Shown here piece by piece: positions 59,817 through 64,000 of a stretch of DNA of 64,000 nucleotides. The DNA comes from Escherichia coli (GTDB lineage: Bacteria; Pseudomonadota; Gammaproteobacteria; Enterobacterales; Enterobacteriaceae), in the NCBI RefSeq assembly GCF_022846255.1, contig NZ_AP025682.1; one strand, given 5' to 3'. The translations under genes and the position numbers were made by a program. A model generated the notes under the pieces. That model ran no database searches. It worked only from the letters and a program-made list of their open reading frames with translations, and had not been told where the DNA came from. How positions within the stretch are numbered: position 1 is the stretch's first letter; each line of letters starts with the position of its first letter.

Positions 59817-62800
59817 TCAGAAGTTGATTCGGAAACCAACGCCACCTGTTATTGGTGACTCGGTCTGCTTACCGTTTTCATAACGAGCTTCAGCCCAGAC
59901 GCCAGCATTTGGGGTCAGTTGAGCATTGACACCCAGCCCGTATTTCCCGGTCGTCCCGGAGATATCGTTCCTGAAGTCATAGGTGTCATTGATACGGACT
60001 TTGTTGTTGTCCGAAAATTCATGACTCACCGCCGCCGACAGGTACGGTTTGACCTCTTTTCCTGCAACGTCCAAGGTCATCCCCAGCTTCAGGCCAGCCT
60101 CAGCCTGCAGGGATTTGGTCGCACCGATACTGGCTTTCATGCCGTTATTCAGGCGGATTTCCTTCTTATCCGCCCGAAATGCCGTCGTCCGCACGTATGG
60201 CTGCGCCCATGCATTCTCATTCAGACTGAAGGTTCTGCCCGCTTCGAGGCTACCGCCGAAACCGTTCTGGCTGTAATCGCCCTTCACCGCCGTGCCGTCA
60301 CTCATCCAGGTACGCAGCTCATTATTAAAGCGGTTGTATTTCAGCACACCGTCCACGTAGTAGCCGTCATTATCAAACCAGGTCGCGTACAGACCACCAC
60401 CAGAGCTGTCAACGTTACTCTTTCCTCCACGGGCATGTTTAATGCTGTTGTCGCTGTAAGAGAAGAAAGTACCTACCGCTAAACTGCTGTCACTCAGGTC
60501 AAAGACCATATCGGCGCCGGTTTCGAAACCGTTCTGCGTCAGGGTATAGCCTGAGCTGGCCCCACCGCTGATGCGCTTGTCTGACCCAGTATAACGGCCC
60601 CATACGCCGCCTGGGGCACGGGTATTCTGCATCACATCACCGTGACGGAAACGCAGATTATCCAGCTCGCTGTTGAAAACGTATGCCGGCGCTGTCGCCA
60701 TGCCCAGTACTGCGTCGGCCGATTTTGTTGTGCGACGCACTGGAGACGACGATGTACCTGCATCTGGCTTACCTGTTCCCGGTTTACCAGCATCCGGGTT
60801 ACCTGCATCCGGGTTACCTGCATCCGGGTTGGTCGGTGGAGTAACTGGAGGCGGAGTATCAGCCTTCAGATACCAGTTGGTATTTTCCTTGCTCAGGCCG
60901 TATTCCCAGGTACCGGCATCGACTTTCCCGCCTTTCAGGGTAAACGCGGCATCACCGCCGCCAGTCTGCACCACCTGAAGCGGTGCTCCAGCAGATACTG
61001 GCTCCAGACCGGTGTTTTTGATATCCAGCACAAAGTTACCGCTGGCATTGCCCGCGACATTAAGCATATCTCCGGTATGTGATGCGATATCCGTGTTCAT
61101 CCGGAACGTCCCGCTACCCGACAGGCTCCCGAGCGCCAGCGACACCGCCTGGAAGGCTGGCGTCATGCGTGTGGTTGTTGACGGACGGAAATCAACGGTC
61201 CCGTTATCCAGCGTCAATGCGCCTACAGTGGAGTCACCATCGAGATGCCAGACAGAGGCACCTTTAACCGCCATATCACCGGCACCGGTGCTGTCTCCCG
61301 CCACGTTCCCCGTCAGGATGGTCCCGTTATCCAGCGTCAGGGTGGTGCCTGACTGCGTCGTCACATTAGCCTTAGCCTGAAGTGCATCCATCGTCATGGC
61401 ACCGCCACTCTGAAGGAAAATCCCACCGTCCTGAGACAACAGGCCGCTGAAGCGGGTGTTCCCGCCTTCCTGTGTCAGGATACCGGTCCCCGTCAGGGTA
61501 CCGATGAAAGTCGCAGCACTGTTGTTGAGGTAATACAGGTTGCCTTCGTTTGTGACTACGTCACCGACGAGCGTCCCTTTATCAGTCAGGGTTGTGGTAC
61601 CGTAGAGCACACCGCCGCTGCGAACATCCAGCGTACCGTCACTGCCAACCATCGTATCGCTGGCCTGATGACCGTCAAACACCGTCAGGTATCCGCCGTT
61701 TTCCAGCAGCATATTGACTGCACTGCCGCCAGCGATACTGAAGCTGCCGTTATCGTTGGTACCACTCACTGCTGCACTGGTATTGGTGACGACAGCCCCG
61801 CCACTGTTCTGGGTAACTTTAGAGGCTGAACCACCGGCCTCCACCTGAAGCATGCCGCCGCTTGTAATAGTCGTTTCTGTGACATTTGCGTCGATGTAAA
61901 CATGCTGACGTCCACCACTGTTAACGGTTGTGTCAGTGGCGCTGCCGCCACTGGAGACGTACTGGCGTCCGCCGTTGTTAACAGTAGTTTTTGTGGCATT
62001 TCCGCCGTAGAGATACTGCCCCCCACCGGAATGAATTGTAGTGTTAGTGGTACTGCCGCCGCTGGAGATAAACTGGCGCCCAGTATTGTTAATTACGGTG
62101 TCCGTGGCACTGCCGCCGATACGGACATACTGGCGACCACCGCTATTAATAGAAGTAGCAATGGCGATGCCGCCTTTGGAGACAAACTGACGCCCACCGT
62201 CATTAACAGAGGTGTTCAACGCATTGCCACCGCTGTAGACATATTGGCTCCCTCCGCTGTTAACGAGGGTGCTCATGGCAACACCGCCACCGGAGACAGC
62301 CTGGACACCACCACTGTTAAGGGTAGTGCTCGTGGCACTGCCGCCTGAATTGATATTCTCGCGGCCACCGTTATTAACGATGGTGCCAGTGACACTACCG
62401 CCGCTGGATACATGCAGCAAACCATTGTTGTTAACGGTGGTATCTGTTGCTTGATGTCCGTTGAGTACACTGAGAGAGCCGCCATTCTCCAGCAGCATAT
62501 TGCTGGCACTGCCTGCGGCAATACTGAAGCTACCCTTAGCGTTGGTGCCATTCATGAAAGAGTCGGTGTCAGTGCTAATGGCGCCGCCGCTGTTCTGAGT
62601 AATTGCAACAGCACTTCCTCCAGAATACACCACCAGTAAACCATCGCTGTTAATGATGGTGTTCGTGGCGCTACCGCCACTGTAGACAAGCTGGGTTCCA
62701 CCATTGTTAATAGTTGTGTTGGTAGCAGTGTCACCTGCATACAGGGGCTGGTTCATGCTCGTTCCACCACTTCCGATTGTCTGGTTATCATAGGCTGCAG

Positions 62801-62960
62801 CCAGCACAGGCATCGACGGCAAAAGCAAACCGGCAATCAGCCCTGCCAGTACAGTACGTTTGATTTGCCGGGGACGTCGGCCTCCTTTACGGGTCAGTTC
62901 TGAAGTGACGACCCACATCCCGGTGGAATCATTCCAGACAGTGTTATAAACCTTATTCAT
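59817..62960 (-). CDS. tibA: TibA/AIDA-I-family self-associating autotransporter adhesin
   Basis: 1047-aa ORF: extended autotransporter signal peptide (MNKVYNTVWNDSTGMWVVTSELTRKGG...), ~19-residue imperfect repeats (SGGSATNTxINSGGxQxV), Pro-rich linker with NPDAG repeats, C-terminal barrel ending ...GVGFRINF; the tibA name is my best recollection of the N-terminus, not a verified match. Confidence 0.85.
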   Translation of the reverse strand: MNKVYNTVWNDSTGMWVVTSELTRKGGRRPRQIKRTVLAGLIAGLLLPSMPVLAAAYDNQTIGSGGTSMNQPLYAGDTATNTTINNGGTQLVYSGGSATNTIINSDGLLVVYSGGSAVAITQNSGGAISTDTDSFMNGTNAKGSFSIAAGSASNMLLENGGSLSVLNGHQATDTTVNNNGLLHVSSGGSVTGTIVNNGGRENINSGGSATSTTLNSGGVQAVSGGGVAMSTLVNSGGSQYVYSGGNALNTSVNDGGRQFVSKGGIAIATSINSGGRQYVRIGGSATDTVINNTGRQFISSGGSTTNTTIHSGGGQYLYGGNATKTTVNNGGRQYVSSGGSATDTTVNSGGRQHVYIDANVTETTITSGGMLQVEAGGSASKVTQNSGGAVVTNTSAAVSGTNDNGSFSIAGGSAVNMLLENGGYLTVFDGHQASDTMVGSDGTLDVRSGGVLYGTTTLTDKGTLVGDVVTNEGNLYYLNNSAATFIGTLTGTGILTQEGGNTRFSGLLSQDGGIFLQSGGAMTMDALQAKANVTTQSGTTLTLDNGTILTGNVAGDSTGAGDMAVKGASVWHLDGDSTVGALTLDNGTVDFRPSTTTRMTPAFQAVSLALGSLSGSGTFRMNTDIASHTGDMLNVAGNASGNFVLDIKNTGLEPVSAGAPLQVVQTGGGDAAFTLKGGKVDAGTWEYGLSKENTNWYLKADTPPPVTPPTNPDAGNPDAGNPDAGKPGTGKPDAGTSSSPVRRTTKSADAVLGMATAPAYVFNSELDNLRFRHGDVMQNTRAPGGVWGRYTGSDKRISGGASSGYTLTQNGFETGADMVFDLSDSSLAVGTFFSYSDNSIKHARGGKSNVDSSGGGLYATWFDNDGYYVDGVLKYNRFNNELRTWMSDGTAVKGDYSQNGFGGSLEAGRTFSLNENAWAQPYVRTTAFRADKKEIRLNNGMKASIGATKSLQAEAGLKLGMTLDVAGKEVKPYLSAAVSHEFSDNNKVRINDTYDFRNDISGTTGKYGLGVNAQLTPNAGVWAEARYENGKQTESPITGGVGFRINF
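60766..60830 (-). repeat. Tandem 15-bp repeats (NPDAG pentapeptide units) within the autotransporter linker
   Basis: Plus strand reads ggtttaccagcatcc gggttacctgcatcc gggttacctgcatcc with flanking degenerate copies; in frame, encoding PDAGNPDAGNPDAGKPGTGKPDAG. Confidence 0.7.
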
Positions 62961-64000
62961 TGCTTACTCCTTTCTCTAGGGTGTCCTCAACACCCTGCTC
63001 AGTTAAAGAACGGTGAAGTTTATTGATGACGCCCTTGACCTGGGCGCCGGTTATCAGCCGGGTACATTCAAATTGCCGGTCAGTGTTTTTATGTCTCGGG
63101 CACCACAGAAAATCGTGGTGGTCAAAATTCAGCGATGTATCGTCCCAGCACCCGTAGCAACCATGGGAGTTAAATACCCGCCATGGGGTATAAAACTCGC
63201 TGTTGGGCAGGCTGAAGCCGCTTATCAGCACCACCGGGATTCCGGTAGCCCAGGCCAGCCATGACAGACCGCTTGGCAAACCAATGAAGAAGCTGGCATG
63301 GCGCAGCAGGTTCACCCTCTCCTGCAGCGGAAGCTTGCCGGTAAAGTCCTCTGCACCCCACGGGATGTGATTCCAGACAAAGCCCTGGCCATAGTGGGCA
63401 TCCCGGTCAATGCACAGCACCCGGTAACCCAGTGATTTCAGGTGTGCGATGACCTCACTCCAGCCGGTGCCGTTGTTCCAGTATTTCGCCTGACAGGTGG
63501 ACTGTGTGGCGATGCACACATAAGGCTCCTGGATAACCCTGGGCGCAGACAGGTCAAGCCGGACGGGGGCTTCACGCGGGTCAACGCCCAGAATGTAGCC
63601 TGCAGAACGGTGGAAACCGACCTTGCGGAAATCCACCGGCTGATTGTTTGTATCGCCACCGAAATAGAGCCCCACGCGATAGGTGGCATAAGGCGCCACC
63701 GTGCGCGGTTTATCCGGCGTGGAAAACTGTATCTGCGGATACTGAGGCGCCAGCAGGTCAATAATGTCCTGCGCCATCGTGCACTCCAGCTGGCACTTAT
63801 GCAGAGACTGGAAGCGCTCTGCATAAGGGAACCAGCCGAGCAAATCGCCCAGCGTACCGGTCGGGAATGAAATCAGCACAGGCCGGTCTTTCAGTTTCAG
63901 TGTTTCATCCAGCAGAGGCGTTTCTTCACCCTGACGGAATACCTGAATACGAAAGCGCACGAAATATTTCTTACTGCTGGTTACCCAGCCTTTATCCACA
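62953..64000 (-). CDS. tibC: Autotransporter-adhesin heptosyltransferase (TibC/Aah-like, GT9 family), 5' end outside window
   Basis: At least 348 codons running to the window edge; Cys/His-rich segment HGCYGCWDD...FDHHDFLWCPRH resembles the iron-binding motif of TibC-type heptosyltransferases; its stop overlaps the autotransporter start by 8 bp. Confidence 0.75.
   Translation of the reverse strand, partial: VDKGWVTSSKKYFVRFRIQVFRQGEETPLLDETLKLKDRPVLISFPTGTLGDLLGWFPYAERFQSLHKCQLECTMAQDIIDLLAPQYPQIQFSTPDKPRTVAPYATYRVGLYFGGDTNNQPVDFRKVGFHRSAGYILGVDPREAPVRLDLSAPRVIQEPYVCIATQSTCQAKYWNNGTGWSEVIAHLKSLGYRVLCIDRDAHYGQGFVWNHIPWGAEDFTGKLPLQERVNLLRHASFFIGLPSGLSWLAWATGIPVVLISGFSLPNSEFYTPWRVFNSHGCYGCWDDTSLNFDHHDFLWCPRHKNTDRQFECTRLITGAQVKGVINKLHRSLTEQGVEDTLEKGVSNE

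Follow-up and report, generated by a model that had tools for sequence, protein, structure and literature searches.

A tibC-tibA adhesin glycosylation pair within a decayed Tn7-like transposon at yhiN of Escherichia coli

The window analysed here is a 64,000-nucleotide stretch of Escherichia coli DNA (assembly GCF_022846255.1, contig NZ_AP025682.1), at the right end of which (59817..64000) the listing of open reading frames (ORFs) gave two minus-strand ORFs, one of 1047 aa at 59817..62960 and one of 348 aa at 62953..63999. The original prediction, made from the letters alone, had proposed a glycosylated adhesin pair of the TibA/AIDA-I type at this position. Our analysis identified the two genes as tibC and tibA themselves, with matches to the solved structures of both proteins (PDB 4rb4/4rap for TibC and 4q1q for TibA). 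Judged from its sequence, the region can be assigned with high confidence to the E. coli tib locus, of which it holds the tibC-tibA operon segment; the allele is a length variant (1047 aa) and belongs to the cargo of a decayed Tn7-like transposon inserted at yhiN.

The tibC-tibA gene pair

The features of the pair within the window are as follows.

62953..64000, minus strand: tibC, autotransporter O-heptosyltransferase (BAHT family), codons 59-406 of 406 in the window, assigned from PDB, TIGR04414 and Pfam matches and conserved residues
62953..62960, minus strand: 8-nt overlap of the tibA start and the tibC stop, ATGAATAA, read directly from the sequence
59817..62960, minus strand: tibA allele, 1047 aa, by homology to TibA a self-associating autotransporter adhesin/invasin and TibC substrate
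62799..62960, minus strand: extended signal peptide of TibA, residues 1-54 (ESPR PF13018, residues 1-46, E=2.1e-12)
61593..62798, minus strand: passenger of imperfect 19-residue repeats, residues 55-456 (periodicity, TIGR04415 and AIDA hits)
62451..62639, minus strand: extra 63-aa passenger module, residues 108-170, lacking a counterpart in TibA of H10407 and present in longer alleles
60864..61226, minus strand: pertactin-like junction/autochaperone region, residues 579-699 (PF03212, E=1.2e-41)
60741..60857, minus strand: proline-rich linker, residues 702-740, with five NPDAG-type units (four-allele alignment)
59820..60641, minus strand: C-terminal translocator beta-barrel, residues 774-1047 (PF03797 at 786-1025, E=2.8e-48)

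The tibC gene crosses the window end, and the GTG at 63999 looks like a start codon only because the window cuts the gene there; this codon aligns to Val59 of the 406-aa TibC. Sequence past the edge was taken from a public contig (L007) that shows 0 mismatches to the window over 14,184 bases and holds the complete 406-aa tibC (L007 8788-10008) plus tibB and tibD upstream of it. Comparison of the window TibC with that of H10407, a strain of enterotoxigenic E. coli (ETEC), gave 341/348 identical residues (98%), and its match to the crystallised enzyme (PDB 4rb4/4rap) had E=3.6e-246. The TibC/Aah equivalog TIGR04414 scored 540.7 bits against a cut-off of 200, despite the 58 N-terminal residues that lie outside the window. 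Pfam returned the TibC N-terminal domain (PF21129) and a partial match to Glyco_transf_9 (PF01075) that covers the C-lobe only (model positions 103-212 of 247, E=4.3e-10). The earlier label of a GT9-family heptosyltransferase was accurate only in a loose sense, the specific family being the autotransporter heptosyltransferases of TIGR04414. With respect to the N-terminal beta-barrel domain (residues 1-97), residues 59-97 lie within the window and the whole domain (PF21129) was found in L007.

Structural work on TibC has assigned the catalytic base to Asp110, sugar binding to Thr226, Lys230, Arg286 and Trp305, stereoselectivity to Pro300 and the ligands of a 1Fe-0S iron finger to Cys339, Cys342, Cys358 and Cys370 (PMC4358343). 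All ten of these functional residues are kept in the window protein (D110, T226, K230, R286, P300, W305 and C339/342/358/370), and the four iron-finger cysteines sit in sequence contexts identical to those of TibC. The original prediction had been made to depend on catalytic residues in the upstream enzyme, every one of which is present; it was right about an iron finger and wrong in describing a Cys/His motif, as the ligands are four cysteines. Given the 98% identity to the crystallised enzyme, the window TibC would be expected to assemble as a dodecamer and to transfer heptose.

TibA of the window matched the solved TibA passenger (PDB 4q1q) with E=1e-114, and the PDB search also returned Ag43 passengers and the translocators of Vag8, BrkA and EspP. 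In an alignment of four alleles, comprising the window TibA and those of H10407 (989 aa), DS26-1 (1202 aa) and 06-00048 (1240 aa), amino acid identity of the window protein to the other three was 91.6–93.9% over aligned positions, with 891/973 positions identical to H10407 (91.6%). The comparison with TibA and TibC that had been proposed as a check of the pair therefore returned both proteins at high identity. The signal sequence of TibA has been defined as residues 1-54, and the proline-rich domain between junction and barrel is a TibA-specific feature (PMC3835316).

The passenger had been described as built from Ser/Thr/Gly-rich repeats of about 19 residues, and this was borne out by a self-identity of 35% at offset 19 (28.5% at offset 38) and a combined Ser, Thr and Gly content of 44.6% over residues 55-460, with 53 Ser and 50 Thr in residues 55-456. 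The heptosylation-target repeat model TIGR04415 matched eight stretches with 276 bits against a cut-off of 30, and at least eight matches to the AIDA domain (PF16168) were detected in the passenger; a full-length AIDA-domain match lies at 137-199, over part of the extra module. At the other end of the protein, a C-terminal translocator, on which the prediction had likewise rested, was found with PF03797, with the barrel model TIGR01414 (439.9 bits) and through alignments with the EspP barrel and with the entire chain of the BrkA translocator (3qq2, 12-284 of 284).

Annotated TibA alleles range in length from ~974 to 1270 aa, and all of this variation falls within the NPDAG linker and the repeat modules of the N-terminal part. 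The extra module at residues 108-170 is skipped in the alignment to 4q1q, and the longer alleles carry this module together with further ones. On this alignment, TibA length variation is ordinary repeat-number polymorphism.

The predicted 8-bp overlap of the two ORFs was confirmed, as the upstream ORF ends at 62953 and the tibA ATG lies at 62960, preceded by a GGAG ribosome-binding site. An identical 8-nt overlap is present in the annotation of H10407, 06-00048 and DS26-1, and its conservation across all annotated loci suggests that translation of the enzyme and its substrate is coupled. The G+C content rises from 25–32% in the two genes downstream of tibA to 52–59% over the pair.

At the nucleotide level, tibC-tibA was ~94% identical to the tibCA locus of ETEC H10407, and at least 80% of the region was held by only 16/5,426 complete E. 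coli genomes. Plasmid-borne relatives with ~82% nucleotide identity are named only generically. The Prokaryotic Genome Annotation Pipeline (PGAP) labels the matching genes in other genomes as tibA and as 'autotransporter strand-loop-strand O-heptosyltransferase'. It names some tibA alleles TibA and others, the window allele included, generically; the exact window protein has been deposited as WP_244331639.1/BDH31413.1 under a generic name only. The pair is therefore an already known and well-characterised system, of which the exact TibA allele was already in the databases. Its identity, domain architecture, catalytic-residue conservation and genomic context are matters of direct observation.

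The working of the pair can be proposed from this homology. TibC would act in the cytoplasm as an iron-containing dodecameric GT-B-like enzyme, moving heptose from ADP-heptose, a precursor of lipopolysaccharide (LPS), onto Ser/Thr within TibA's 19-residue strand-loop-strand repeats, the two proteins being made by translation coupled through the 8-nt overlap. TibA would leave the cytoplasm through Sec by way of its extended signal peptide, after which its C-terminal 12-strand-type barrel would enter the outer membrane and expose the beta-helical passenger. Glycosylation of TibA has been reported to stabilise the protein and to be required for epithelial adhesion, and to be dispensable for aggregation, biofilm formation and invasion (PMC3835316, PMC4358343). 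Epithelial adhesion would accordingly depend on the glycosylated passenger, and self-association, aggregation, biofilm formation and invasion may be supported by the passenger irrespective of its glycosylation. For the window pair, we infer activity, glycosylation, adhesion phenotype and expression state from sequence comparison.

A Tn7-like transposon at yhiN and the genes downstream of tibA

Between yhiN and tibA the window holds the following features.

54149-55348: yhiN, its last codons supplied by the transposon end
55331..55450, plus strand: 5-bp duplication ATTGC (55331-55335) and transposon right end from 55336 (TGTTCAAAGATAATAAAGTTGTG..., with repeated AAGTTGT)
55491..56969, plus strand: tnsA pseudogene (two frameshifts) and 5' stub of tnsB, Tn7-like, cut at 56969 by an IS1-like end
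57516..58145, plus strand: IS481-like integrase-core pseudogene bordering the tib module (NF033577, partial, E=1.7e-45)
58155..58964, minus strand: 269-aa stand-alone EAL-domain protein (NF007839, E=1.9e-61)
59380..59721, minus strand: 113-aa LuxR/GerE-type helix-turn-helix (HTH) protein, conserved neighbour downstream of tibA (weak matches to the RcsB/FimZ C-terminal HTH)

The original prediction had placed the pair on a yhiN island, and this placement was borne out by transposon ends, an ATTGC duplication and an empty site at yhiN. Reading from yhiN towards the EAL gene, the order is Tn7-like right end, tnsA pseudogene, tnsB stub and IS481-like pseudogene. The left end, followed by ATTGC, was located in L007 at window-equivalent positions 69685-69710, 5.7 kb past the window. 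With the right end at 55336, the transposon remnant (14,375 bp) thus encloses the whole tib locus. The intact counterpart in DS26-1 is a 24,565-bp element with the termini TGTTCAAAAACAATAAAGTTGTG... and ...ACAACTTTATTGGTTCTACACA and ATTGC on both flanks. Colinearity of the window with DS26-1 stops at 56969, and tblastn with the DS26-1 TnsA gave matches in three different frames. At the junction held by the IS481-like pseudogene, the annotation of other genomes likewise records a pseudogene.

For reconstruction of the empty site, the outer flanks were joined by a single ATTGC and the resulting 120-mer was searched among E. coli genomes. Many E. coli carry it without mismatch (100% identity) at the 3' end of yhiN, with 80% or more of its length covered in 3,612 genomes, and since the empty site exists at full identity, both the boundaries and the 5-bp duplication are confirmed. 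Intact tnsA, tnsB, tnsC and tniQ/tnsD genes were looked for in the window and none was found, tnsA being disrupted by two frameshifts and tnsB reduced to a stub, with no tnsC or tnsD present. Judged by this gene content, the window element is a non-autonomous remnant.

The interval between yhiN and yhiM is a documented insertion site of Tn6230 (PMC10121019, PMC11406308). The element described here resembles Tn6230 in its insertion at the yhiN 3' end between yhiN and yhiM, in TGT...ACA termini with repeated TnsB-type sites, in its 5-bp duplication and in a TnsA/TnsB/TnsC/TnsD-like gene set, the last as seen in DS26-1. It differs in that the transposition genes of the window copy are decayed, and in its cargo, which is an adhesin/glycosylation locus, whereas the Tn6230 papers found discuss defence and resistance cargo. 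That a decayed Tn7-like transposon of the Tn6230 type encloses the tib locus at yhiN is essentially established, the class being assigned by site, termini and duplication. A 2020 review called the insertion site of the pathogenicity island (PAI) tibA elusive (PMC7545054), and no prior link of tib to Tn7-like or Tn6230 elements was found in the literature searched, which left most papers in subscription journals outside its reach.

The yhiN island of 06-00048 (L002 7792-1851 region) carries, beside the tib module, a set of the cyclic oligonucleotide-based antiphage signalling (CBASS) type with SAVED, SMODS nucleotidyltransferase, E1/ThiF-like and JAB/MPN genes, which fits yhiN-yhiM as a defence-island hotspot.

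The HTH and EAL genes lie directly downstream of tibA in every tib locus inspected, and these cyclic di-GMP (c-di-GMP) genes can therefore be regarded as part of the tib module. The EAL protein keeps all catalytic motifs (EVLLR, ELSE, DDFG, KLD and EGIETIEQ) and is probably a c-di-GMP phosphodiesterase. Its gene is intact in DS26-1, 06-00048 and the Salmonella IncHI1 plasmids described below, truncated by IS66 in H10407, ATCC 43896 and AR_0069, and split in WS4437A-1. The original prediction was correct that a c-di-GMP module adjoins the adhesin and misleading in presenting this as an unusual juxtaposition, as the two genes accompany tibA in H10407 as well. A scan for promoters and terminators in the intervals that separate tibA, HTH and EAL genes gave nothing above chance, and the sole terminator-like match lay inside tibA. 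The HTH/EAL pair (58155-59721) is very AT-rich (25–32% G+C).

Other genomes carry the tib module at other sites. In H10407-type ETEC it is flanked by insertion sequences (IS) near sbmC/yeeA, and in WS4437A-1 it lies in a tRNA-Phe island adjoining tia. It was also found on conjugative IncHI1 plasmids (~246 kb) of human Salmonella enterica 4,[5],12:i:- isolates (L020, L021), where the module is complete, comprising both invertases, the AraC-type gene, tibD, tibB, tibC, a 1270-aa tibA, HTH and EAL genes, and where the region compared was ~98% identical to the E. coli copy.

The remainder of the window, positions 1-54000, is ordinary E. coli chromosome with 99–99.5% identity to sequenced strains and includes yhjG, hmsP, treF, the gad/mdtEF acid-fitness island, the chu heme-uptake operon, gor, dtpB, uspA, uspB, pitA and yhiN. 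Carriage of chuA points to a phylogroup other than A/B1.

A candidate phase switch upstream of tibD

Upstream of tibD and tibB, L007 carries two genes for FimB/E-type invertases, separated by an AraC-type gene. The invertases are 64% identical to IpuA and 66% identical to IpuB, respectively, and NF007370 scored 254.8 bits on the adjacent invertase against a cut-off of 221. The interval between the proximal invertase and tibD (L007 6947-7222; ~2.8–3.1 kb past the right edge of the window) is inverted in H10407, ATCC 43896, AR_0069 and WS4437A-1. Boundaries set by cross-genome comparison delimit a segment of 262 bp, and its inverted cores of 7 bp read TGACCCA/TGGGTCA in the window strain and TGACCGA/TCGGTCA in H10407. 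In-silico inversion of L007 6954-7215 produced one colinear 802-bp alignment with H10407 at 97.0% identity.

Orientation varied with the state of the invertase genes among complete E. coli genomes, as eight loci, on chromosomes or plasmids, with an intact invertase had the orientation of the window strain and 13 loci with an IS600-truncated invertase had the opposite one. All five Salmonella IncHI1 plasmids, which have intact invertases, were in the window-strain orientation. It is important to note that the truncated-invertase loci probably share one ancestor, so that these data count as a single inversion event. Both orientations within one intact-invertase lineage were sought among the E. 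coli loci, Salmonella plasmids and metagenomes and were not found, the states differing between lineages only. A metagenome scan for the opposite-orientation junction (CTTTTTGACCSATTTTGACA) gave nine matches, all unrelated to tib, and the search of near-identical plasmids for both orientations returned the five Salmonella copies in the one state noted above; an apparent two-piece match in that search (H123) resulted from the joining of a paralogous invertase.

The arrangement is close to that of ipuS in the uropathogenic E. coli strain CFT073, an element of 260 bp with 7-bp repeats and a distal repeat inside ipuA, in which the OFF state encodes full-length IpuA and which controls the regulator ipuR and the autotransporter UpaE (PMC6083910). 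In both systems two Fim-type invertases accompany a segment of similar size (262 versus 260 bp) with 7-bp cores and a distal repeat in the C-terminal codons of an invertase, one orientation gives a full-length and the other a shortened invertase, and a regulator and an autotransporter lie downstream. At the tib locus the left core lies within the C-terminal F-D-P codons of the invertase, and the window-strain state therefore encodes a 220-aa invertase and the other state a 200-aa one. The tib locus differs from ipuS in showing no DNA similarity in the invertible segment, in having an AraC-type gene between its two invertases, in the CaiF/GrlA type of TibD and in a TibB with no similarity to IpuR. 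By analogy, the 262-bp segment is probably an ipuS-type phase switch, predicted to be OFF in the window strain.

A single promoter-like site (TTGACA-16/17-TAGATT, 10/12) was detected in the segment, a count to be read against 1.3 expected by chance, and this chance-level site faces tibD in H10407 and away from tibD in the window strain. A perfect palindrome (19 bp + 3 + 19 bp, L007 7199-7239) has its centre at the recombination core nearer to tibD. Only the window-strain orientation contains it, its arms being direct repeats at opposite segment ends in the other state, and it could be a transcription block or a recombinase-binding feature. The short inverted repeats I6 and I7 around the invertase occurred at chance frequency and proved not to be the boundaries of the switch.

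Taken together, it is somewhat more probable than the reverse that tib is natively a Tn6230-type cargo at yhiN and is phase-variable through an undescribed ipuS-like invertible promoter that is OFF in the window strain, the H10407 copy having been relocated by IS and locked ON. The switch part of this joint proposal would follow from one between-lineage inversion and from the architecture of the locus, and the locked state proposed for H10407 from the truncation of its invertase by IS600. No prior description of tib phase variation or of tibB/tibD regulation was found in the literature that was searched.

Alternative readings, implications and comparison with known systems

Several observations weigh against the assignment of the region as a tibC-tibA segment carried by a Tn7-like element. 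The allele departs from the characterised TibA of H10407 in its additional 63-aa module and in a shorter proline-rich linker, and PGAP names the exact protein as an 'autotransporter outer membrane beta-barrel domain-containing protein' and not as TibA. In addition, the element around the locus is decayed (tnsA pseudogene, IS remnants), and since the upstream invertible segment has the predicted OFF orientation, the locus may be silent in laboratory conditions.

The most probable of the alternatives, although we consider it unlikely, is that the two genes are intact-looking but silent relics of a decayed mobile element, phase-locked OFF or unexpressed, which make no contribution to phenotype. 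Destruction of the Tn7-like transposition genes fits such an explanation, as do the orientation of the only promoter-like site in the upstream segment, which points away from tibDBCA, and the 19-bp perfect hairpin directly upstream of tibD in the window-strain orientation. Both ORFs are nevertheless uninterrupted with every functional residue kept, the promoter scan stood at chance level, and both adjacent invertase genes are intact in L007, so that the switch should still be reversible.

A far less probable alternative would identify the pair as AIDA-I/Aah (or EhaJ/EgtA), a glycosylated adhesin module of like type that belongs to another named family member. The 19-residue repeats and AIDA Pfam domains are common to both, the NCBIfam model of AIDA-I matched in part, and the plasmid relatives at ~82% nucleotide identity carry only generic annotation. 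However, the AIDA-I model (NF033176) scored 298.7 bits and the Ag43/Cah model (NF033177) 275.2 bits, neither reaching its cut-off of 1200, while identity to crystallised TibA and TibC was 92–98% and the TibA-specific proline-rich linker was present. Identities as AIDA-I, Ag43 and an LPS-core heptosyltransferase were all rejected on NCBIfam scores. An ordinary LPS-core enzyme (GT9: WaaC/WaaF/WaaQ) merely adjoining an autotransporter deserves almost no credence, since against the partial PF01075 match and weak RfaQ and WaaC matches stand equivalog scores of 23–25 bits for these LPS heptosyltransferases (RfaQ, WaaC; cut-offs 170–467), the Cys4 iron finger and an N-terminal domain specific to TibC, by which TibC is a distant GT9 relative and not an LPS-core enzyme.

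With the assignment to tibC-tibA retained, the locus adds another allele of a well-characterised adhesin-glycosylation pair, and its main use is a corrected annotation because PGAP labels the allele generically and not as TibA. The tib island gains a defined mobile vehicle and attachment site in the Tn7-like element at yhiN, with copies also on Salmonella IncHI1 plasmids. If true, the transposon reading would answer the 'elusive' insertion site of PAI tibA. The genomic context suggests that expression of TibA may be phase-variable in most carriers, with the ETEC reference lineage fixed in one state. In that case, results obtained with H10407 would have to be extrapolated with care, and there would be consequences for the value of TibA as an antigen in vaccines or diagnostics.

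Among known systems, the tibDBCA locus of ETEC H10407 (PDB 4RAP/4RB4, 4Q1Q) shares with the locus described here its genes, the 8-nt overlap, the order of TibA domains, the HTH and EAL genes on the downstream side and, upstream, tibB and tibD. It differs in its TibA of 989 aa versus 1047 aa here, the window protein having 63 aa more in the passenger (108-170) and three fewer NPDAG units in the linker. The H10407 site is an IS-ridden sbmC/yeeA region, in contrast to yhiN within a Tn7-like element here, its EAL and both invertase genes are truncated there and intact here, and the 262-bp segment upstream of tibD has the opposite orientation.

The alleles of DS26-1, 06-00048 and the Salmonella IncHI1 plasmids are alike in TibA identity (93.7–93.9%) and switch orientation, and the first two also share the island layout and the Tn7-like ends at yhiN. 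Their TibA proteins are longer (1202–1270 aa) with more repeat modules, and DS26-1 keeps tnsABCD-like genes, some of them frameshifted, whereas the window has only the tnsA pseudogene and the tnsB stub. Aah/AIDA-I and Ag43 have in common with the window pair a beta-helix of 19-residue repeats, the junction and the barrel. They are set apart by family models far under cut-off (AIDA-I 299/1200, Ag43 275/1200), and Ag43 also by its lack of a dedicated glycosyltransferase.

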